From assembly GCA_021108005.1 (NCBI GenBank), contig JAIORS010000191.1, positions 6,345 through 70,344 of the forward strand: 64,000 nt of DNA, given 5' to 3'. Under the pieces are notes generated by a model, which did no database searches, was not told where the DNA came from, and worked only from the letters and a program-made list of their open reading frames with translations. Positions 4,062 through 64,000 of the stretch are shown here, one piece after another. Each line of letters opens with the position of its first letter. Position 1 is the stretch's first letter. The translations under genes were made by a program, and so were the position numbers. Origin of the DNA: Candidatus Aegiribacteria sp. (GTDB taxonomy: Bacteria > Fermentibacterota > Fermentibacteria > Fermentibacterales > JCC-6).

Positions 4062-5981
4062 ATGGGAAAAATAATAGGAATAGACCTTGGAACCACGAAT
4101 TCATGCGTGGCCGTTATGGAGGGCGGTGAGCCTACCGTAATACCCAACGCTGAAGGCGCGAGAACTACACCTTCGGTAGTAGCCTTCAATGACAAGGGTG
4201 AGAGGCTTGTAGGTGTTGTAGCCTACAGGCAGGCAGTGGCGAATCCCGAGAATACGATATTCTCGATAAAGAGATTCATGGGATGCAAGTACAACGAGAT
4301 GAAAAGTGAAATTGAAAGGGTTCCCTACAAGGTTATTGAGGGGAAGAACGGCGATGCCTGGGTGGAAATCATGGGCAAGAAGTACTCACCCCCGGAAATA
4401 TCCGCGATGATACTTCAGAAAATGAGGCAGACAGCCGAGGATTACCTGGGAGAGAAAGTAGAGAAAGCGGTTGTGACCGTTCCCGCGTATTTCAACGACA
4501 GTCAGAGGCAGGCCACCAAGGATGCCGGGAAAATAGCCGGTCTTGAAGTGGAAAGAATTGTAAACGAACCCACAGCGGCAGCTCTTGCCTACGGACTTGA
4601 CAAGGAATCCTCAAACAGGACTATCGCCGTATACGACCTCGGTGGAGGAACCTTTGATATATCAATACTGGAAATTGGTGACGGGGTTTTTGAGGTTAAA
4701 TCAACCAATGGAGATACTCACCTGGGTGGGGACGATTTCGACCATGCCATCATTAACTGGATGGTTGCCGAATTCAAGAAGCAGCAGGGCATCGATCTGT
4801 CCAATGACAAAATGGCCATTCAGAGGCTCAAGGAAGCTGCTGAAACAGCCAAATGCGAGCTTTCAACAACACAGAGCACCAATATCAACCTTCCTTTCGT
4901 CACGGCGGATTCAGCCGGGGCGAAGCATCTCGACATGACACTTACAAGATCAAAACTCGAACAGCTGGTTGATGACCTTGTAGAAAGAACAGTGGCTCCC
5001 TGTAGAACGGCATTGAAGGATGCCGGTATCGAGGCGTCAGCTATAGACGATGTTCTTCTGGTCGGTGGACAGACCCGGATGCCGCTTGTTCAGAGGAAGG
5101 TTACCGAGATATTCGGCAAGGAACCTCACAAAGGAGTCAACCCGGATGAAGTGGTTGCCGTTGGAGCAGCCATCCAGGCAGGTGTACTCTCAGGTGATGT
5201 CAAAGATGTCCTTCTTCTGGATGTTACTCCGCTTACACTTGGTATCGAAACCCTCGGCGGAGTGGCGACACCCATTATAGACAAAAACACAACTATACCT
5301 ACAAAGAAAAGCCAGATATTCAGTACCGCAGCTGACAGCCAGCCCCAGGTGGAGATCATCGTGCTTCAGGGCGAAAGAAAAATGGCGGCAGACAACAGGA
5401 CTGTTGGAAGATTCGTTCTTGACGGTATTCCACCTGCCCCCAGGGGAATGCCTCAGATAGAAGTAACGTTCGATATCGATGCTAACGGAATTCTTCACGT
5501 TTCAGCAAAGGATAAGGCTACCGGGAAGGAACAGAAGATCAAGATAGAAGCCTCCAGCGGACTATCCAAAGATGAAATAGAAAGTATGATTCATGACGCT
5601 GAAGCTCATGCAGATGAGGATGCTAAAAAGAAGGATATAATAGAAAGGCGCAATCAGGCCGATGCCATGGTTTTCGAAATCGAGAAACAGATGAAGGAAT
5701 ACGGAGACAAAATATCTTCAGATGACAGATCCAGGCTTGATGCTGCAGTTTCGGAAATGAAGAAGGCACTTGAGGGGGAAGATGACGATCTGATAAAGCA
5801 GAAGTCAGAGAGTCTTCAGGAAACCTGGAAGCAGTTCGGGGAAGCCTTCTACAAGCAGCAGCAGGCTCAGGAGCAGGATGCGGGACCAGCCGGACAGGCC
5901 GGAGAAACAACCGGAACAGCTGATGCCGGTGGAGATGAAGACAACACTGTTGACGCTGATTACGAAGTTGTTGATGACTGA
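4062..5981 (+). CDS. dnaK: Chaperone DnaK (Hsp70)
   Basis: [13 protein letters not shown]...DLGGGTFD...[11 protein letters not shown], full-length with acidic C-terminal tail. Confidence 0.97.
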
Positions 5982-10924: not shown

Positions 10925-11992
10925 CTACTCGATCAAGCCAAGCTTTTTGAAATTATCGATAAACTCCATCAGCAGTTTGTCGTTCGGGTGAAGTCTGAAA
11001 GATCTCTCAGCAAATGATGCAGCCTTTTCCAGGGCGTTATCCTGCACAAGCTGGCGGATTTTTACAATGTATTCCGCGGTGGTTTCAGAATTACTGCCGT
11101 CCAGTGAGGATGAAACAGTATTTGATTCAGTCTCAATATCTGACAGGAGTTCCTCAAGCCCATTCGTTTCAGGAATCATCTCAAAGGCTCTGCGGGCAAG
11201 TACGACAGCTTCAGCAACTTTTCCTGCTACCAGTTTTTTTCTGGCTATTTGAACAAGATTGGCAGATTTGATTTTCGTTTTCAGAAGATCTATCCTTAAC
11301 TGAACCTCCGGATTATCCGGATCGATTTTCATGGCTCTCTTCAGATAGGCAATCGCCTTCTGCTGATGCCCGTTGTTGTATTCTCTGTCAGATGCTTCAA
11401 ATATTTTAGTAATTCGATCCTCGGAAGCCATCGATGATTTCCTTTCATGGTTGTTTTCCACAGCTGTTTCAACAGGTTCTGTTTCCTGATCTAAAAACAT
11501 TTCCTCAGGAGTGAATTCAAGTATTTCAAATTGCTCTTCCGCAGGAGTTTCCAACTCTGTTTGCGCAGATTCTGTTTCCTGATCTACAAGCATTTCCTCT
11601 TGAGTGAATTCAAGGATTTCAACAGGTTCTGTTTCCTGATCTACAAATATTTCCTCAGGAGTAAATTCAAAAATTTCAACTGGTTCTTCCTCAGGAATCT
11701 CTACAGTGGTTTCCGCCGGTTCTTCCTCAGGTTCGGTTCCGGTGTTCTTTCTGCCAATAAACTGAATAACCTGAACGAGGACTCCATTGTTATCATCAAC
11801 ATCAACAGCCTTCCTCATAAGCTCAAGGGCTTCATCTCTTTTTCCCTGGTGAAGTTTCTTCTTGGCTTTTCTGACAAGGCTGGCAATAACCTTTACATTT
11901 TTTTTCAAAACTACCTCCGGAAATTCAGCAGCCCGAAGCGTAAAGATAATACAACTTCGAACTCTTCGGGAACCATGGCAGTATATCCACAT
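10925..11992 (-). CDS. TPR-like protein with internal acidic tandem repeats
   Basis: N- and C-terminal TPR-like helices (AIAYLKRAMKIDPDNPEVQ) and a central E/F/T-rich ~20-aa repeat (EPVEILEFTPEEMFLDQET). Start codon uncertain. Confidence 0.45.
   Translation of the reverse strand: MWIYCHGSRRVRSCIIFTLRAAEFPEVVLKKNVKVIASLVRKAKKKLHQGKRDEALELMRKAVDVDDNNGVLVQVIQFIGRKNTGTEPEEEPAETTVEIPEEEPVEIFEFTPEEIFVDQETEPVEILEFTQEEMLVDQETESAQTELETPAEEQFEILEFTPEEMFLDQETEPVETAVENNHERKSSMASEDRITKIFEASDREYNNGHQQKAIAYLKRAMKIDPDNPEVQLRIDLLKTKIKSANLVQIARKKLVAGKVAEAVVLARRAFEMIPETNGLEELLSDIETESNTVSSSLDGSNSETTAEYIVKIRQLVQDNALEKAASFAERSFRLHPNDKLLMEFIDNFKKLGLIE
11460..11700. repeat. In-frame tandem DNA repeat, ~60-nt unit in about 3.5 diverged copies
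   Basis: ttcaacaggttctgtttcctgatctacaa...ttcctcaggagtgaattcaag recurs at ~11470, ~11560 and ~11622. Confidence 0.6.
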
Positions 11993-32585: not shown

Positions 32586-32772
32586 GGGGTCAAATCTTTA
32601 CTCTTGACATTATCTTTCTATGTGCCTAGTGAAAATGTATAGAACTTCACATTCAAACACTTTTTTACTTTTGTACAATTTGATGAATGGAAGTAATGTC
32701 AAGAGTAAAGATTTGACCCCTTTTCCTCAATGTGATGAATGGAAGTAATGTCAAGAGTAAAGATTCGACCCC
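32586..32772. repeat. MITE-like repeat cluster: 27-bp perfect terminal inverted repeats 81 bp apart, plus an extra direct copy of the right end
   Basis: GGGGTCAAATCTTTACTCTTGACATTA at 32586-32612; reverse complement at 32694-32720. A 45-nt direct repeat at 32681-32725 and 32733-32777 has one mismatch. Confidence 0.5.
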
Positions 32773-45719: not shown

Positions 45720-45751
45720 GGGGTCGGACTTCACTTGCGGCACTTACGCAG
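45720..45751. repeat. GGGTC-headed intergenic repeat, copy A
   Basis: GGGGTCGGACTTCACTTGCGGCACTTACGCAG immediately after the phosphoesterase stop. Related copies at 46453, 51943 and 55283. Confidence 0.5.
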
Positions 45752-56073: not shown

Positions 56074-56850
56074 CTAAAGCACGTTGAAAAGCCTGAGATA
56101 ATCGATAAGCTGATATTCAAAGGACAACAAATCAGCGCCATCTGTGAATACACTGTCTATGTAAAATTCAGCGTAATGATTATTAGTCAGCTGTACATAT
56201 ACCCAGTTGATATCGGTTACCTGTACAGAATCAACCCATTCCGATGAACCGGGTGCTGGAGCTACGTTTCCGAGTGTACCCCTGAGACAGAGCTTCGTAT
56301 CGTTTCCGCCGGGATACAGCGCAGGGTTATGATTGCCCGAGTAGAGGTAAACTTTACTATTAGCTATTCCAACGTAGATATCCTGATGAAATTCAGAGGA
56401 ATCGGCCACACCGGTTCCCCAGCCGAGACCGTCATTATAGAATATCAGACCGTTCGATGTGGTGTTCGCTCTGAGTTCCTGCTCCTGGGAATAATTGGCC
56501 TGAGCCCTGGAATTAACTCTGTTTGAAAAACCTGTAGAGTAATCCAGCCCCTTGGAGGCCTTTATCTCGTAATACCCGGTCGATGTCGCTACATGCGTCC
56601 AGGTTGTATCCGCCGTTAAACCGGGCTCGCCCCAGTCTCCAGGATGAGTTGTCGCGTAGTAGATGTGGTACCCGTCAACTTCCACGTCAAGAGCATCCCA
56701 TTCCAGAACTACAGAATCTCCCTTTGATGCCGTTTCGTTAATAGTTAGGTTCTGTACATTGGGAAGGGACCCGGATGGTGCTGAAGGATCGCTCGAACAT
56801 CCCACAATAGAAATAGCAGCTATAACAGCAGCTATCATGTACTTTTTCAT
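56074..56850 (-). CDS. Hypothetical lipoprotein
   Basis: Signal peptide plus VGCSS lipobox. Confidence 0.4.
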   Translation of the reverse strand: MKKYMIAAVIAAISIVGCSSDPSAPSGSLPNVQNLTINETASKGDSVVLEWDALDVEVDGYHIYYATTHPGDWGEPGLTADTTWTHVATSTGYYEIKASKGLDYSTGFSNRVNSRAQANYSQEQELRANTTSNGLIFYNDGLGWGTGVADSSEFHQDIYVGIANSKVYLYSGNHNPALYPGGNDTKLCLRGTLGNVAPAPGSSEWVDSVQVTDINWVYVQLTNNHYAEFYIDSVFTDGADLLSFEYQLIDYLRLFNVL

Positions 56851-57591: not shown

Positions 57592-57839
57592 ATTACTGAC
57601 CTCCAATGCAGAAAGTTAGCTTCTATTTACACAATATTAACAGATCTTCACTTATTCGGGGAGCCCGAAGGCTGATTCGAGAGTTCGGGAGCCAGTACTG
57701 GCGAACCTCTCCGAATGTGCCGACACCACCGGAATTCTCACCGATCAGAACCGCGTATCACCTGGTCGCAGTTCGAAAGGATGAGATGTATTCAGCCCGG
57801 AGTCATTATCACCGTCTTCCTGCGGGATTCTCTCAAGGA

Positions 57840-58368
57840 AACAATAGGAAAGTGGATTTTTCGTAATACCATTACCTGCTCCCAAAGCAGTAAATATTTC
57901 CCAATAAACCTCCGATGTCCTGCCTGATTAGGTAAATGTGTTTAATTATGGGTCTTTCCTGCTAATGCGGTAGATATCCAGATACCGCAATTGCCGTGCG
58001 TAGATCGGGCAAGTTCGTTATTCCAACGCCATTGACGGCTCTAATATAACTAAATAGATTTGTGATATAACCAAATGTATATGTTATATAACTGAAATAT
58101 TTAGTTCATACAGGAGAAATACCGATATGGAAACATACGATTTTAGTTTTATCTACGCTCTTCTGGGAGAGACTGTGTCCAGAACTCTTTTCTACATTGC
58201 AAGGTTCGGTGATTCCTATCCTACGGAGATAGCGAATAACTTCTTAATGAACCAGCAAAGGGTTCAGTATCGGATGGAAAAGCTCGAGGATGCCGGGATA
58301 CTAAAGAGCAAACTCGTCGGCAGGACAAGGCTGTACAGGATTAATCCCCGGTACGTTTTGAAGAATGA
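57840..58368. repeat. 529-bp direct repeat, copy 1 (identical to 62005..62533)
   Basis: Identical by eye along its length: AT-rich upstream region with palindromes plus the first 242 nt of the wHTH gene. Confidence 0.85.
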
Positions 58369-58414
58369 TGTGATTGCATCCATATCTCCTATAAGCAGGT
58401 TTCCATTGGAGTAG
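58127..58414 (+). pseudogene. Truncated duplicate of the wHTH regulator gene (first 81 codons identical to 62292..62663, then divergent and short)
   Basis: Lies in repeat copy 1. Reading continues 46 nt into unrelated sequence (antisense to the NHL-like fragment) before a stop. Confidence 0.5.
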
Positions 58415-58695
58415 AACGCCATGGAAGAGGGCAAATTGAACTCACCCGTTCCGGAGCCCTCCCGCCCAATAGATCTGATGAATTCTCCCTCCGGTGTGTA
58501 CATGAATGCCATGTGCTTAATCCTGTCCAGAAACATGATATTACCATCGGGTGAATGCGTCATGTAGATAGGCCGTCCGAAAATGTAGTCAGGATCACCG
58601 ATTTCGACTCTTATCGAATCGGTAATAACGAGTTTGTACTCAATGTCGGGGAGTTCGGGTGGGGATTCGTCAGCTCCGCACCCGATCAGTATCAT
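58369..58695 (-). pseudogene. 5' fragment of an NHL-repeat-like lipoprotein gene, 3' end replaced by repeat copy 1
   Basis: MILIGCGADES lipobox; NHL-like SIGREGSGTGEFNLPSSMAFYSNGNLLIGDMD. Homology stops exactly at the repeat boundary (58368/58369). Confidence 0.45.
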
Positions 58696-58720
58696 TAATA
58701 CAGTTGAGAGTATTCAGTGT

Positions 58721-59350
58721 TTAATTCCAGTGACCAACCCTCTCAAAGATCAGAGTTTTTCCAACACAGGCCGGGCAAAGGTTGCTATCATTCAGAGAAA
58801 TCAGCTCCCAGCTCATCGGATTACCCGTCGGGTCTTCGCCTAACAGAACACCTGCAGGAAGCTCATCATCCAGGATAAGTTCTCCCAGAACATCGGGTGA
58901 TCTCAATGTCCTAACTAATTTCTCGATTCCATGGTAGTTGTTGTTGAGGGTGACCGCGATTTCACTGAAGTTTATCTCACCGGTCTCACGGTAGTTATTA
59001 TTAATATTAACGGCTATTTCCTCGGCGGTCTCCATTCCGATCCCACGGTAGTTATTATTGATGTTAACGGCAATCTCCTCAACGGTCAGTTCTTCAATCT
59101 CACGGTAGTTGTTGTTGAGGGTGACCGCGATATTTTCGGCGACGATCAGGACAATGTCGAATCCTACCAGTTGAAACTCACCGGTTTCAGGATCACGGTA
59201 TACTTCGGCAACATAACCCGGTGTCATGCCATATCCCGCAAAGAACTCATCGGTCTGGTAGCCGCACTCGTCGCAGATGCCAATAACAATTTCCCCGGCA
59301 ACAACCGGTATGGCACAAGCCAGCACAAGAAGCATAAGCATCCAGCGCAT
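58721..59350 (-). CDS. Secreted 19-aa tandem-repeat protein
   Basis: Signal peptide (MRWMLMLLVLACAIPVVAG). Four copies of EEIAVNINNNYR.I...TAE, encoded by a 57-nt DNA repeat at 58931-59146. Confidence 0.5.
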   Translation of the reverse strand: MRWMLMLLVLACAIPVVAGEIVIGICDECGYQTDEFFAGYGMTPGYVAEVYRDPETGEFQLVGFDIVLIVAENIAVTLNNNYREIEELTVEEIAVNINNNYRGIGMETAEEIAVNINNNYRETGEINFSEIAVTLNNNYHGIEKLVRTLRSPDVLGELILDDELPAGVLLGEDPTGNPMSWELISLNDSNLCPACVGKTLIFERVGHWN

Positions 59351-59506
59351 ATATCCCTCCTTAGTATCTGCTTTCCAGTCAGATTTGAGAATACATATCA
59401 TCAGCCCGTTCTGTCAAGAACAGAGTGAACGCAGACCTACCTCTCAAAGGGCATAGAGAATTATGATCGTTAATCAGTTATTATCCTTCAGTAAGAAAGG
59501 AAGCTC

Positions 59507-60532
59507 ATGAAACTCATAACAATCGCTCTTCTCATCCTGTTTTCAGTGTCAGCACATTCGGTCACGATTGACATTCTTTCGGAGTATTCCTGTCCCGTCG
59601 AGATGATAACATCTATTCCGGTCCGAATCGATAGCTGCCAGCTTCTGGAATCGGGAGGGTTGAGAATCTCGGCAAGCCAGTCAGTTCTATTTAACGATGT
59701 TGAATTTAATTACGATTCCTGGACGATTGTAATCGATTCGGATTGGTGTCCCATGTCATGTGACAGGGCTGCCCTTGATAACAGTTTCGAACTGAGTACT
59801 GCCCAACTAGGGGGATCAGGCGAGATGTGGCTGATCGCCTGCGCAGAGCAGGGGGACACACTGTGGACATGCGCTCTCGAGGGAACGGATGAGTTCCATG
59901 TTAATCCTTTTGTAACCGAGATCTCTGATGGTAGATACCTGGTAAACAACGATCCCGATTGTCATAGCACCTGTACGGAGATCCAGAGCATATCAGCAGC
60001 CGGTGAGATGATATGTCATTATTCGCTGAATACCGATTATCTGCTTGACCTGCCCGAGCCAATCGGTGAGACAGCAGCATATGTCCACTCCCTCCGCATG
60101 ACATCCAGCGGTGATATTCTTATCGGCGGTGCCGTCCAGCAGTGGTTCACCAGCCCGGTGGCTGGATTTGTCTGCCTTCTCGATGGTGATACCGGTAATC
60201 CCCTTTGGAGAAATGCAGGTTATTTCCGCGGAATGGCTAGTGTTTACGATGCCGTCGAAACGTCTTCAGGTCATGTAATAGCTGTAGGCACCACTGCGAG
60301 AAGCGTCGAATTGGAAGAGACACCTCGCACTATGTGGGGTACAGAGCTGGCGTTCATCGCCGTTCTGGATGCAACTGGAACACTTCAGAAAATGGTTGTG
60401 TGCGATCTGGATATTGCCAATTGCTTCTACAGTATCATCGAGACGGATCAATCGGAGTGCGAGTTCCTGATTGTCGGCACCGGTTCTTCATCGTACGAAC
60501 TTGTATTTCTGAAGGTAATCATTTCTACATAA
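59507..60532 (+). CDS. Hypothetical secreted protein
   Basis: Signal peptide; no recognisable domain. Confidence 0.4.
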   Translation: MKLITIALLILFSVSAHSVTIDILSEYSCPVEMITSIPVRIDSCQLLESGGLRISASQSVLFNDVEFNYDSWTIVIDSDWCPMSCDRAALDNSFELSTAQLGGSGEMWLIACAEQGDTLWTCALEGTDEFHVNPFVTEISDGRYLVNNDPDCHSTCTEIQSISAAGEMICHYSLNTDYLLDLPEPIGETAAYVHSLRMTSSGDILIGGAVQQWFTSPVAGFVCLLDGDTGNPLWRNAGYFRGMASVYDAVETSSGHVIAVGTTARSVELEETPRTMWGTELAFIAVLDATGTLQKMVVCDLDIANCFYSIIETDQSECEFLIVGTGSSSYELVFLKVIIST

Positions 60533-60876
60533 CACGATAACCGATCAGGATGGGAATTCCGACGACCTTTTCGGAAGCTTGAGTTAATTTCTAAATCCCT
60601 TTGAGGTTTTCTCTCAGCCTCTGCACGGGATCATCCGATTTCGTTATTGCACTTTGGATTCGGACCTCAGATCGAAGATCTGAATGGTGAGTTTATCCTG
60701 AGCGAGCGAAGCGAGTCGAAGGGAATCCCGTCGGGCGTTGATTCAATAGTATACACTTCAAATCATAGATTAATTTCAATAGACTTTATTTTCACAACTT
60801 GAACGATGCAATTCATTGTAGTGACCCCTTTACAGAAATCAAGCTCTACGCATACTCATGTATGGAAGTAGGCAAG

Positions 60877-62006
60877 ATGAACGCGAAAAAACCACTCTCT
60901 GAAACCCATCCGGAAGTAGCTGCACAGTGGCACCCATCAAAAAATGGAAATCTCAAACCTGATGATGTTACTTATGGTATGCGTAAGAATGTCTGGTGGA
61001 TTTGTGATAATGGACACGAATGGTGTGATACTATTGGACATAGATCTCGCGGAAGAGGTTGACCATTTTGTTCTGGAAGACGTCCAAGTGCTGAATACAA
61101 TCTAGCATCAATCAATCCAGAAATAGCCAGTGAATGGCATCCAGAGAAAAATGGTTCTGAAAAGCCTGAACACTTCACCCCTGGTAGCAGTAAAAAAGCA
61201 TGGTGGATTTGTGACAAAGGTCATGAATGGAAAGCTAATATTAGCAGTCGAAATAGGGGAGCAGGCTGTCCATATTGTAGTGGTAATAAGCTCGCATATG
61301 AGAATAGTCTTGAAGTTAAATATCCAGATTTATCAAAGCAATGGAATATAGAAAGAAATGGATTACTGAAACCTTCAGAGGTAAGTCCTGGATCTCAGAG
61401 AAAAGTATGGTGGATATGCGAGAATGGGCATGAATGGGATGCGTATATCGCTAATAGGGTTAGAGGTGGAGGTTGTCCATTCTGTAATACTCAGTCATCT
61501 AAGCTTGAAATACGGGTCTATTGCGAGTTGAAAGCAAGTACTATGGAGAAAAGTACAATGGTTACGAGCTTGATGTATTCCTTGTTAAAGAGAAGATTGG
61601 TATCGAAATCGATGGAGGATATTGGCATAAAGACAAAGTATGCCAGGACAGGAAGAAGAATGAAACTCTCAAGACTCAAGGCATAACCGTTGTCAGGCTT
61701 AGAGGTGAAGGTTTGAGCAAGCTATCACCATTCGATTCATGTTACAAAAAGAATGAGCGTCACAAAGTAATCATTAATAGGTTATTAGAGGGTATGTTAG
61801 AGAACTCTTTACTCAATAAGAATGCAGTTCGAATCATGCAAGAGTACATTACTGAGAATAAGTACAGATCGCTGTCCGAGTATAGACGTATACTGGAATA
61901 TTTACCTGGACCAATGCCCGAGAAATCCTTGCAATCACAAAGGCCCGATATTGCCTCAGAATGGCATCCAACAAAAAATGAACCCCTTACACCTACTATG
62001 TTCTAA
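60877..62006 (+). pseudogene. Zinc-ribbon-repeat / DUF559 (Vsr-like endonuclease fold) gene, disrupted
   Basis: Repeats of WHPxKNG...P....GS.KKVWWICxxGHEW....RxRGxGCPxC. In-frame TGA at 61060 where the repeat consensus needs Cys. Frame switches between the last Zn ribbon (frame 1) and the YELDVFLVKEKIGIEIDGGYWH endonuclease-like domain (frame 3). The 3' end is cut by repeat copy 2. Confidence 0.55.
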
Positions 62007-62533
62007 CAATAGGAAAGTGGATTTTTCGTAATACCATTACCTGCTCCCAAAGCAGTAAATATTTCCCAATAAACCTCCGATGTCCTGCCTGATTAGGTAA
62101 ATGTGTTTAATTATGGGTCTTTCCTGCTAATGCGGTAGATATCCAGATACCGCAATTGCCGTGCGTAGATCGGGCAAGTTCGTTATTCCAACGCCATTGA
62201 CGGCTCTAATATAACTAAATAGATTTGTGATATAACCAAATGTATATGTTATATAACTGAAATATTTAGTTCATACAGGAGAAATACCGATATGGAAACA
62301 TACGATTTTAGTTTTATCTACGCTCTTCTGGGAGAGACTGTGTCCAGAACTCTTTTCTACATTGCAAGGTTCGGTGATTCCTATCCTACGGAGATAGCGA
62401 ATAACTTCTTAATGAACCAGCAAAGGGTTCAGTATCGGATGGAAAAGCTCGAGGATGCCGGGATACTAAAGAGCAAACTCGTCGGCAGGACAAGGCTGTA
62501 CAGGATTAATCCCCGGTACGTTTTGAAGAATGA
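62005..62533. repeat. 529-bp direct repeat, copy 2
   Basis: Identical to 57840..58368. Confidence 0.85.
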
Positions 62534-62663
62534 GCTGATGAATTTACTGCAGAAGGCTCTTGAATATCTTCCAGAGGAAGAAATAGAATCATTTTATACG
62601 AAGAGGAGAAGGCCACGGACAAAGGGAAAGACACTGAAAAGATATCGAGGGAATGCGGAATAG
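62292..62663 (+). CDS. Small winged-helix DNA-binding protein (putative regulator or antitoxin)
   Basis: LLGETVSRTLFYIARFGDSYPTEIANNFLMNQQRVQYRMEKLEDAGILKSKLVGRTRLYRINP wHTH pattern, basic C-terminal tail. Confidence 0.5.
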   Translation: METYDFSFIYALLGETVSRTLFYIARFGDSYPTEIANNFLMNQQRVQYRMEKLEDAGILKSKLVGRTRLYRINPRYVLKNELMNLLQKALEYLPEEEIESFYTKRRRPRTKGKTLKRYRGNAE

Positions 62664-63169
62664 CTGATCTTGCTGCAATAATATGCCAGCATCTTGCGAA
62701 TAGAGAAATCCACGCTGTCCTCACGGGTGGTGCTGTAGTATCGATTTACTCGGATGACCGCTATCTTACTGCTGATCTTGATTTCATTACCCTCAGTAGC
62801 ATGAAACGAGTAAAGGTAGCTCTTGAAGAGCTTGGATTCCATAAAGAGATGGGACGCTATTTCTCACATCCTGATACAGAACTCCTGATAGAATTTCCGC
62901 CCGGTCCGCTATCTATCGGTTATTCCCCTGTTTCCAGTACACACAAAATAACAATCGGGAATTCCACACTCAACCTTCTCACACCAACCCAGTGCGTCAT
63001 GGACAGGCTGGCAGCCTTCTACCACTGGGATGATATACAGTCTCTGGCACAGGCTATACTCGTTGCTACACTTCATGATGTGGACATGGAATACATTGCT
63101 GAGTGGTCCATCATAGAAGGAAAAAGTGAACTGTTCAACCACTTCAGAGATAAATTGAATAAACAATAG
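62564..63169 (+). CDS. Nucleotidyltransferase-fold protein (minimal NTase, GG...D.D motif), translation start unresolved
   Basis: Open frame from 62564. REIHAVLTGGAVVSIYSDDRYLTADLDFI is the NTase hG[GS]-x9-13-DhD core. No ATG/GTG/TTG occurs upstream of this motif; the first ATG (62801) lies after it. The frame overlaps the 3' end of the wHTH ORF in the -1 frame. Confidence 0.4.
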   Translation: MSSRGRNRIILYEEEKATDKGKDTEKISRECGIADLAAIICQHLANREIHAVLTGGAVVSIYSDDRYLTADLDFITLSSMKRVKVALEELGFHKEMGRYFSHPDTELLIEFPPGPLSIGYSPVSSTHKITIGNSTLNLLTPTQCVMDRLAAFYHWDDIQSLAQAILVATLHDVDMEYIAEWSIIEGKSELFNHFRDKLNKQ

Positions 63170-63279
63170 GAAAGTGGAATTTTCGTAATCCCATTGATAT
63201 CTTCGATCAAAAAGTATGCGGACCAATACGGCAGAAAACGCCCCTTGCAAAATAGTGAACATTTGTTTACATATATGCC

Positions 63280-64000
63280 ATGGAATATGTCATTACACCT
63301 GTTCGAAGCTGGTACTCCTTCAGGTACGGTGTTGAGTCCCCCACGCAGCTTGCTGAAGGAATTGCCAGGTGTGGTTACGCCGGAGGAATTCTTTCGGATG
63401 CCGGAGTTGTAACCGGACAGCTGGAATATGCCGCGGCATGCAGGGAAAACGGTATCATCGGGGCTGCGGGAGTTAAGCTGAGGATTAAAGGGATAGAAGT
63501 AGTTTTTGCAGCTCTTGAAGGAGGATGGGGGAATCTTTGCGGTCTCATAACCTCTGCAACTGTCCCTGATAGGATCTCGACCGAGGAATCACTGCCCCTG
63601 TGTGTGAACATGGCAGCGATTGTCGAAAAACCTTCCGGGGCAGAAATGCTGGAACATGAGATGGGTTTCTCCGGGCAGCTGTTCGTATCTGTTTTCCCCG
63701 AATGCATATCCGGCAGAAAGCCAGGCATGGTAGAGCGTGAGATACTTGAACAGGGATATCGTCCGATTGCATCCTGGCCTGTTGTATTTACAACTACCGA
63801 AAGCATAAACACACACAGGATTCTTCGCAGAGGATATCTGGCCATAGAGAAAAAGAAAATTGATCCGATGGAATTCTCGGGTAAGAATAATGTATTGCCC
63901 GATGTTGATGTGTTCAAAAGGAGTTTCCGCGGTGCTGAGCGTTCATTGATGGGAAACAGGCAGTTGGCGGGAATGATTTCAACGGAACCTGTAAAAGAAG
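63280..64000 (+). CDS. DnaE-type DNA polymerase N-terminus (degenerate PHP domain, DnaE2/ImuC-like), 3'-partial
   Basis: Frame open from the ATG at 63280 to the window edge. MEYVITPVRSWYSFRYGVESPTQLAEGIARCGYAGGILSDAGVVTGQLEYAAACRENGI matches the DnaE N-terminal PHP layout (cf. ELHCHSxFSxLDGA...ALAITDHG) with PHP metal ligands substituted. Confidence 0.5.
   Translation, partial: MEYVITPVRSWYSFRYGVESPTQLAEGIARCGYAGGILSDAGVVTGQLEYAAACRENGIIGAAGVKLRIKGIEVVFAALEGGWGNLCGLITSATVPDRISTEESLPLCVNMAAIVEKPSGAEMLEHEMGFSGQLFVSVFPECISGRKPGMVEREILEQGYRPIASWPVVFTTTESINTHRILRRGYLAIEKKKIDPMEFSGKNNVLPDVDVFKRSFRGAERSLMGNRQLAGMISTEPVKE

Follow-up and report, generated by a model that had tools for sequence, protein, structure and literature searches.

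The stretch analyzed here, referred to as the window, comprises 64,000 nucleotides (nt) from a Candidatus Aegiribacteria metagenome-assembled genome (MAG; locus tags K8S15_, proteins MCD4776797-99). Its subject is a pair of identical 529-bp direct repeats, R1 and R2, which bracket a 3.6-kb block of DNA designated X. The repeat is best explained as a duplicated junction fragment, consisting of a decayed oriIS-type end of an insertion sequence (IS) of the IS91 family (HUH-Y2, rolling-circle) and the adjoining spacer and module DNA. The module is a two-gene unit for a winged helix-turn-helix (wHTH) protein and a protein with a predicted nucleotidyltransferase fold, and its promoter-proximal third is the part included in the repeat. 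A real duplication anchored on an IS91-type end is very probable. The specific IS91-type one-ended rolling-circle route is a more tentative proposal, held at less than even confidence. The two copies are as follows.

57840–58368, plus strand: R1, repeat copy 1, 529 bp, an exact match to 62005–62533.
62005–62533, plus strand: R2, repeat copy 2, comprising IS-end remnant E2 (62009–62092), spacer (62093–62174) and the 5' part of the module (62175–62533).

In a self-comparison of the window, the two copies are 100% identical over exactly 529 bp. Immediately outside both of them, the flanks show 18–32% identity in 50-nt windows, which is the random level. The repeat is made up of approximately 85 nt of an IS91-family oriIS-type end, an 82-nt spacer, and 359 nt of the module, and the palindromes present in it include GCGGTA...TACCGC and ATAACTAAATA...TATTTAGTT. 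R1 truncates an NHL-like lipoprotein gene on the opposite strand, cut at 58368/58369, and leaves a truncated wHTH duplicate, a 95-aa open reading frame (ORF) at 58127–58414. R2 truncates a zinc-ribbon/DUF559 gene in the fourth repeat of that gene, at 62004/62005, and supplies the intact 123-aa wHTH gene at 62292–62663, running on without a break into the remainder of the module. An initial annotation made from the sequence had described the identical repeats, their palindromes and regulatory region, both truncations, and the truncated and intact wHTH genes, and these descriptions hold, with the same order found in other assemblies. Its statement that the repeat contains the first 81 codons of the wHTH gene is correct as to content and slightly off in the count, which is 80 codons plus 2 nt.

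The link to a transposable element lies in the left edge of the repeat. The first 34–35 nt of the repeat recur a third time in the window, at 63161–63195 with 2 mismatches, where 0 occurrences are expected by chance. A 35-mer pattern derived from the repeat was found in several Aegiribacteria/Fermentibacteria MAGs, on up to three contigs per genome. The dispersed element to which it belongs is present in at least 6 Aegiribacteria/Fermentibacteria MAGs and 9 metagenome contigs; its copies are similar over 85 to approximately 680 nt, their left flanks are all unrelated, and their left boundary is sharp. The left edges of both repeats and of the third partial copy coincide with this boundary. Readings of the 35-mer as an integron attC, a dif/Xer site or an att site were rejected, as it has no inverted partner in the window, no recombinase appears among the ORFs or Pfam matches of 54–64 kb, and it is the IS end.

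A full IS copy of 1.72 kb is found in the contig L022. It carries a 452-aa ORF, on the strand opposite to the orientation of the end, with matches to PF14319 Zn_Tnp_IS91 (3.6e-16) and PF04986 Y2_Tnp (9.7e-14), both past the cut-offs. The window-type end lies 196 nt downstream of this transposase gene, and the oriIS of IS91 is also located downstream of the transposase gene (PMC13181058). The ends of the element, AGGAAAGTGGATTTTCC... and ...CAGGTCAAGGA(C/A)AAT, the latter set by the point at which the similarity between L021 and L022 stops, do not form inverted repeats; as judged by reading, neither resembles the reverse complement of the other. In the relatives, the oriIS end contains the subterminal palindromes ATAGGA..GTGGA-TTT-TCCRC..TCCTAT and CTGCT-N5-AGCAG, with folding energies no better than those of shuffled sequences. 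Subterminal palindromes have been described in the oriIS of IS91 and IS801.

The tetranucleotide abutting the end is informative as well. In a scan with a pattern free of flanking sequence, nine copies were preceded by CAAT (four copies), TAGT (two), TAAT, TAAA, and AGAG (one each), so that CAAT occurs in four of nine copies against a chance expectation of about 1/256 per copy. Ten further Aegiribacteria/Fermentibacteria copies and the three window copies also have CAAT, which was part of the search patterns that found them. Judging from these counts, CAAT is the preferred target tetranucleotide of this IS lineage. The far, terIS-side end of the element also finishes in CAAT or AAAT, and in IS801 and IS1294 the tetranucleotide of the terIS cleavage site matches the target tetranucleotide (PMC13181058). 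In transposase orientation, CAAT reads ATTG; the targets of IS91 are CTTG and GTTC, with a conserved T at position 2 (PMC13181058). L021 and L022, the only copies with both flanks visible, show no duplication beyond the CAAT-like tetranucleotide.

Compared at the sequence level, the dispersed element belongs to the IS91 family. It resembles IS91, IS801, and IS1294 in its full-length relative with a Zn_Tnp_IS91 plus Y2_Tnp transposase, in its unlike, non-inverted ends, and in the two subterminal palindromes downstream of tnpA. It resembles IS91 in the abutting tetranucleotide with T at position 2, and IS801 and IS1294 in a terIS-side end finishing in the same tetranucleotide. Non-autonomous deletion derivatives also exist, namely L021 (940 nt), L025, and a mini element of L046 that has both the ori and the ter end. 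Consequently, mobilization in trans is plausible in this lineage. Both these derivatives and the co-duplication of adjacent DNA from the ori end are features of the IS91 family. The host phylum (Fermentibacterota, Aegiribacteria) is new for the family, and the target is CAAT/ATTG rather than CTTG/GTTC.

In two other genomes, the IS end is preceded by a short copy of its own boundary: CAATAGG-CAATAGGAAAG in L023 (6925–6945) and CAATAG-CAATTGGAAAG on the minus strand of L016 (near 2916). These boundary duplications may have been left behind by recurrent cleavage or insertion at one site. When viral contigs were scanned for the IS end, the only matches were at chance level and lacked IS homology, and Rfam scans of the region and of five element-bearing loci found no known RNA family.

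Within the window, three remnants of such ends are present in one orientation, E2 being part of R2 as listed above. The remaining IS-related features and the spacer are as follows.

57844–57927, plus strand: E1, an oriIS-type end remnant of approximately 85 nt after AACAAT, with approximately 80% identity to positions 1–85 of L021 and L029.
63161–63195, plus strand: E3, AACAAT and a 31-nt oriIS-type remnant, with 84–87% identity to the IS ends.
57690–57843, plus strand: a probable, decayed terIS-type end, finishing ...TCAAGGAAACAAT directly against E1.
57928–58009, plus strand: the 82-nt spacer, with the hairpin GCGGTA-N10-TACCGC.

The left boundary of E1 is sharp in an alignment with 15 other copies. 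All three remnants are preceded by AACAAT; of 14 copies elsewhere, only 2 have AA in front of CAAT. The shared hexanucleotide and orientation fit unit ends made at ter-like sites. E3 lies 85 nt upstream of a gene for a DnaE2/ImuC-like polymerase and adjoins the second gene of the module at 63160/63161, where it replaces the last 6–8 codons. The product of that gene ends in ...KLDASTSKHL or similar in relatives and in ...KLNKQ in the window, with KQ and the stop codon read from E3. The 82-nt spacer shows no similarity above shuffle level to the IS and none that is significant to the module copies of other genomes.

To the left of R1, homology to L046, which holds the orthologous locus of a related species, extends up to 57689. 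The 154 nt between this point and E1 (57690–57843) share the collinear blocks CGnATCACC, ATGAGATGTATnCA, and TCAAGGAAA with the far end of the IS copy in L022, with TCAAGGAAA at the very end, and the score of the chained alignment with the L022 end was reached by 3 of 2000 shuffles. A first comparison of 57690–57839 with the IS had remained at shuffle level, and the extension to 57843 gave the terIS match, which is a suggestive one. The junction to the left of R1 is thus suggestive, in its sequence, of a ter^ori junction. As a separate observation, positions 4176–4400 of L046 contain a derivative of the same IS that resembles a miniature inverted-repeat transposable element, with an oriIS-type end of approximately 105 nt and a terIS-like end in the orientation opposite to that of the window. 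This mini element sits in the orthologous intergenic region upstream of a gene for a 218-aa protein, and the region appears to be a recurrent IS site.

The IS-terminus left edge of the repeat, the third terminus at 63161, and the terIS-like DNA left of R1 had been overlooked in the initial annotation, and they tell against its proposal of a generic duplication or a site-specific insertion. A segmental or tandem duplication, or an integrase-type insertion of X, unrelated to the IS end, is accordingly very improbable, even though a large target duplication or a Campbell-type insertion would leave a direct repeat around unrelated DNA. The left boundary of the repeat matches the IS-end boundary within a few nt in three places, which would be an unexplained coincidence, and X is a mosaic of host fragments rather than an element. 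No integrase, recombinase or att-like dyad was found in or near X (ORFs and Pfam, 54–64 kb), and neither the ORF listing nor the stretches of the window read by eye gave any sign of a tRNA gene, although no tRNA scan of the window was made.

The right-hand portion of the repeat comes from the wHTH-nucleotidyltransferase module, whose features are listed below; the promoter scan was made on R2.

58010–58368, plus strand: duplicated 5' part of the module, with a promoter-like TTGACG-17-TAGATT, operator-like palindromes I2, I4, I6, and I7, and wHTH codons 1–80.
58127–58414, plus strand: truncated wHTH ORF of 95 aa, consisting of 80 native codons and 15 from the antisense strand of the NHL fragment.
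62292–62663, plus strand: intact wHTH gene, 123 aa, MCD4776798.1, with weak, consistent ArsR/MarR-like matches (Pfam, NCBIfam, PDB).
62642–63169, plus strand: gene for the predicted nucleotidyltransferase-fold protein, called by PGAP as 175 aa from ATA at 62642, MCD4776799.1.

The module recurs in at least four unrelated contexts of Aegiribacteria contigs (L006/L007/L008, L009–L011, L048) with 85–93% nucleotide identity, a distribution that shows it to be a portable unit. The homology is limited to positions 62175/62196–63160/63163 of the window (including L006, L011, and L048). Consequently, the repeat spans an IS/module junction and is not a natural unit: its first 170 nt lie outside the module, and only 62175–62533 belongs to it.

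The second protein of the module belongs to a family with 964 homologues, typically of approximately 175 aa and without a Pfam assignment. The protein itself has no Pfam match at E<=10 and no NCBIfam or PADLOC match, and by sequence it is not AbiEii/DUF1814. Its motif LTGGAVVSIY...DLDFI (G[GS]...D.D) is nearly invariant in 50 homologues. Because a profile and sequence search against the PDB found nothing, a fold comparison was needed. The AlphaFold (AF2) model has a predicted local distance difference test (pLDDT) score of 96.2, and Foldseek matched it to ANT(2'')-Ia (3.9e-5), MenT1 (1.1e-4), LnuA, and MenT3, with template modeling (TM) scores of about 0.5–0.6. Together, the motif and the model point to a nucleotidyltransferase (Pol-beta-like) fold, and the gene pair looks like a toxin–antitoxin pair in the style of MenAT or AbiE. 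The likeness to these systems includes a small wHTH gene directly upstream of a nucleotidyltransferase-fold gene with G[GS]...D.D, a palindrome-rich promoter, the occurrence of the pair in different genomic contexts, and the Foldseek matches to MenT1, MenT3, and ANT(2'')-Ia. In contrast to AbiE, the window protein matches neither AbiEii/DUF1814 nor any other Pfam, NCBIfam or PADLOC family. It also differs from MenAT and AbiE in being a protein of approximately 175 aa with a different C-terminal helical domain and a TM score of only about 0.55–0.6, and in having, throughout the window clade, a gene without a canonical start codon; a toxin role is putative. At the start of the homologues (M-x-K-I...), the window ORF has no ATG, GTG or TTG, and the first canonical start, at 62801, lies past the catalytic motif. 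The Aegiribacteria copies L006, L011, and L048 share this lack of a canonical start.

Several further observations concern the module. The nucleotidyltransferase ORF and the wHTH gene overlap, the former being in the -1 frame, and an A_AAG_GGA heptamer is located at approximately 62620 (region 62564–62801). A fusion of the two products by a -1 frameshift at this heptamer was considered and dropped, the heptamer not being conserved in L048. Read by eye, the module stands beside a tRNA gene in L006 (10440–10540; minus strand, after a strong hairpin) and beside an apparent 3' tRNA fragment (TGGAGGCGGCGGGATTCGAACC) in L011 (10540–10565). These neighbors hint at integration hot spots. The truncated 95-aa protein keeps the predicted HTH and wing, the Pfam and PADLOC matches falling within residues 17–90, and lacks the C-terminal 42 residues; it is also called in L001 and L002, with a weak MarR_2 match. 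The complete promoter/operator region of R1 would drive its expression, and one may speculate that the protein titrates or competes with the intact regulator.

With these components in place, the stretch from the 218-aa gene to the DnaE2-like gene is best explained as a head-to-tail array of IS91-type units without transposases, written as (terIS remnant ...AACAAT)^[E1-spacer-module 5' / X ...AACAAT]^[E2-spacer-whole module ...AACAAT]^[E3, 31 nt]. The two units, U1 and U2, end in AACAAT and show no further terIS similarity. Three properties of IS91 are relevant to the way in which such an array could arise: 82 bp of the oriIS end are sufficient for it, it runs past terIS in 1–10% of events and takes adjacent DNA along, and it inserts after its target tetranucleotide (PMC13181058). 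E1 and E2 retain approximately 85 nt of the oriIS-type end, against the 82 bp required by IS91.

In the proposed route, a transposase acting in trans would first nick CAAT^AGG of the E2 unit, and copying would proceed rightward through the module, as in IS91 one-ended transposition. The copy would then be placed 4.2 kb upstream, behind the CAAT with which the resident terIS remnant finishes. Finally, an illegitimate deletion or an abortive insertion would join wHTH codon 81 to NHL codon ~109, with loss of the rest of the new copy and of the 3' part of the NHL gene. A single wHTH/NHL junction would account for both truncations. The start of the tract bears directly on this route: the identity begins at AACAAT/AGG in both copies, and the third copy has the same boundary. 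If the duplication were random, a start at an IS91-type nick site would be unexpected. Nor is the tract an independent IS insertion, since it starts at the nick site and also includes 444 nt that do not belong to the IS.

Several results weigh against transposase-driven copying. The right edge of the repeat reads ...AAGAAT^GA, with no more than a GAAT 2 nt inside the edge, and a candidate pseudo-terIS at this edge was rejected, as 86–116 of 300 shuffles scored as well. Because the edge has no terIS-like sequence, the additional deletion or abortive step must be assumed. The terIS reading of the left flank is backed by one of two references, the match of 57690–57843 to the L021 end being not significant. 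In all three window copies, the first oriIS palindrome is degraded (TTTTTCGTAAT compared with the consensus TTTTCCGCAAT) and the second is intact, and the degradation may have made these ends inactive. No transposase gene or other part of the IS was found in the 64-kb window. No empty site or single-copy variant was found, a scan of JGI metagenomes for a junction of the left flank to X giving 0 matches. Finally, the same anatomy is accounted for by host recombination starting at an E1 already in place, with no transposase involved.

Such host recombination, the main rival and considered rather unlikely overall, would begin with a break to the right of an E1 already beside the terIS remnant. 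The break would be repaired by invasion of E2 over the 85-nt homology, approximately 444 nt of the right flank of E2 would be copied, and the new end would be joined illegitimately inside the NHL gene, by break-induced replication, synthesis-dependent strand annealing or homology-facilitated illegitimate recombination. This process accounts for an identity that starts at the IS-end boundary and stops arbitrarily in wHTH codon 81, for the patchy microhomology at the stop (GAnnTGAT on both continuations), and for the NHL truncation at the same junction. It needs no active transposase, in agreement with the degraded palindrome and the lack of tnpA in the window. The recurrent use of the intergenic region upstream of the 218-aa gene, with the independent mini element of L046, is in its favor, and the SNP state that the copies share within each assembly (described below) fits ongoing conversion. 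However, it requires a separate, earlier insertion of E1 exactly at the ter^ junction, gives no reason for the identical hexanucleotide AACAAT left of the nick site in both copies, which also precedes E3, and invokes a break for which there is no direct evidence.

A broader version of the transposition route, concerning the same array, is doubtful. The 31–85-nt oriIS remnants may still be substrates of a transposase whose gene lies elsewhere in the genome, with new units added after the preceding CAAT, to form a growing, ISCR-like capture array that has no transposase of its own. It would involve host fragments and a toxin–antitoxin-like module in Fermentibacterota, and a CAAT-targeting lineage of the IS91 family.

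The interpretation of a repeat of this kind depends on the assembly. With A for the left flank, R for the repeat, and B for the right flank, the order A-R-X-R-B of the window is also found in L001 and L002, metaSPAdes contigs of other samples in the European Nucleotide Archive (ENA), with 4 and 21 single-nucleotide polymorphisms (SNPs), respectively, relative to the window. Logan contigs of three further runs are as a k=31 graph predicts for an R that is entered from two different left sides and an X that adjoins R at either end: L013 comes from the left flank and ends 30 nt into R, L005 begins exactly at 62005, and L045 covers block X and reaches 30 nt into R on each side. The repeats are real as assembled.

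The identity of the copies is a different matter. Repeat position 239 is C in both copies of L001 and L002 and T in both window copies, which fits either gene conversion or a single de Bruijn consensus for the 529-bp repeat. To a short-read assembler, a repeat of this length is one edge of the graph, and the identity of the copies is therefore partly imposed by the method. Consequently, perfect identity holds for the sequence as assembled and cannot date the event. It is weak evidence of recency, and the recent duplication that had initially been deduced from it is unsafe for a short-read assembly in which both copies share their position-239 state.

The same graph would result just as well from one chromosomal R (A-R-B) and a separate 4165-bp circle of X and R, such as a rolling-circle intermediate or a product of excision, or from a mixture of A-R-B and A-R-X-R-B. 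An artefact or mixture of this type is improbable. In its favor, a circle closed from ter to ori would carry exactly the observed junction between the end of X and the start of R (...AACAAT^AGG...), all the evidence comes from short reads, the assembler forces both repeat copies to be identical, and L005 crosses the right edge of R into B unbroken. Conversely, the linear A-R-X-R-B order appears in three assemblies from different samples and software (the window, L001, and L002), a linear path over a 529-bp repeat normally requires read-pair support, X has no replication gene (ORF list and Pfam), and both left contexts of R and both overlaps between X and R are seen in L013 and L045. As a side observation, L005 (Logan SRR15668622, equivalent to window positions 62005–63388) passes from R into the module without a break. 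This would be unexpected if R to X and R to B were equally represented in the sample, and could be due to low coverage or to a subpopulation without the R-to-X junction.

Block X and its surroundings contain the following genes.

58369–58695, minus strand: N-terminal fragment of an NHL/DUF5128-like beta-propeller lipoprotein gene, approximately 109 codons, cut at the R1 junction.
58721–59401, minus strand: intact gene for a 226-aa protein with 19-aa tandem repeats; a 59% identical protein is found in L040, with collinear DNA.
59507–60532, plus strand: intact gene for a 341-aa protein; orthologues with 89–90% identity adjoin purC in L039 and L040.
60593–60637, minus strand: purC remnant, the last 14 codons, ...DDPVQRLRENLKGI and stop, aligning to the 3' end of L040 purC, ...DDPMDRLRENLRGI and stop.
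60877–62004, plus strand: Zn-ribbon (DUF4379 x3)/DUF559 pseudogene with one in-frame TGA and one frameshift, its fourth repeat cut at ...TPTMF.

X had been described as a block of decayed genes. This is accurate for the NHL fragment, the purC remnant, and the Zn-ribbon/DUF559 gene, and does not apply to the 226-aa and 341-aa genes, which are intact. The NHL fragment matches Pfam DUF5128 with an E-value of 1.1e-4, which narrowly misses the curated cut-off, and no canonical start codon precedes its signal peptide. The Zn-ribbon pseudogene matches Pfam DUF4379 (2.6e-16) and DUF559 (2.4e-5), and its decay was read from a three-frame translation. The 226-aa and 341-aa genes have orthologues in related species, reported jointly at 82–90% identity. 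In two related species, the segment 58721–60635 has a HEPN/MNT pair on one side and a complete purC on the other, and is located downstream of ParE/ParC. L039 and L040 have this complete purC after the 341-aa gene, at the position of the window's remnant, and the homology of the remnant with L040 stops at 60635. No purC was seen elsewhere in the 64-kb window. The segment 58721–60635 is, by synteny, a host segment relocated from another locus; when a second, native copy of the 341-aa gene was sought in this species, the window-type locus was the only one to appear in the available records. In its gene content, X is thus a mosaic of an NHL fragment, an apparently relocated segment, and a Zn-ribbon/DUF559 pseudogene.

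Some observations in and around the block are of a more local nature. The 226-aa secreted-protein gene contains four tandem 57-nt (19-aa) repeats at 58923–59150, with a consensus of approximately AVTLNNNYREIEELTVEEI, and is called as 209–211 aa in other assemblies. To the right, from 63280 to 64000 and beyond (L001 10989–16273), lies the DnaE-type polymerase gene, encoding 958 aa with DNA_pol3_alpha and finger domains and followed by a LonC-like protease gene. Its N-terminal PHP-like region is without the usual histidines (MEYVITPVRSWYSFRYG...), a feature that suggests a DnaE2/ImuC-like enzyme. To the left, 14 substitutions between the window and L002 are concentrated in about 100 nt (56555–56657) of a gene for a 258-aa fn3-like lipoprotein, with 7 others over the surrounding 11 kb; the cluster looks like a recombination tract or a hypervariable patch. 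Other short exact repeats of the window (20-mers or longer) are located at 11467–11589, 32681–32713, and 45720–45745, with spacings of 57–150, 52, and 732 nt, respectively.

Comparable arrangements are known from ISCR1 in complex class 1 integrons, where partial duplications of the 3'-conserved segment (3'-CS) bracket captured genes and rolling-circle read-through is held to build mosaics. ISCR1 keeps its transposase beside the captured genes, and the duplicated segment is the integron 3'-CS. The window differs in its cargo, a toxin–antitoxin-like module and host fragments, and in having no transposase. It also departs from the IS91 family in retaining only 31–85-nt remnants with a degraded palindrome, and past transposition activity here is putative.

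The rearrangement is most likely an ordinary transposon-driven event in the genome of an uncultured Aegiribacteria species. What is new is its occurrence in a phylum known only from metagenomes and the different target sequence; the kind of event is itself unsurprising. The finding is of use to researchers in mobile DNA and to those who assemble these genomes, and opens no new biological question. For short-read MAG assembly, the locus is a trouble spot, the 529-bp repeat and the IS ends being places where contigs break. The two copies should also form a good substrate for RecA-mediated loss of 4165 bp (X and one R), and the earlier suggestion that they allow deletion of the intervening 3.6 kb was right. 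Because the pair is prone to deletion, strains with and without X should coexist. If the interpretation is correct, it would document an IS91-family lineage of Aegiribacteria and Fermentibacteria with a CAAT target and common non-autonomous derivatives. This lineage would reshuffle host DNA as ISCR and IS91 elements do in Proteobacteria, the outcome at this locus being a duplicated regulatory region with a truncated repressor-like gene, and relocated host genes.

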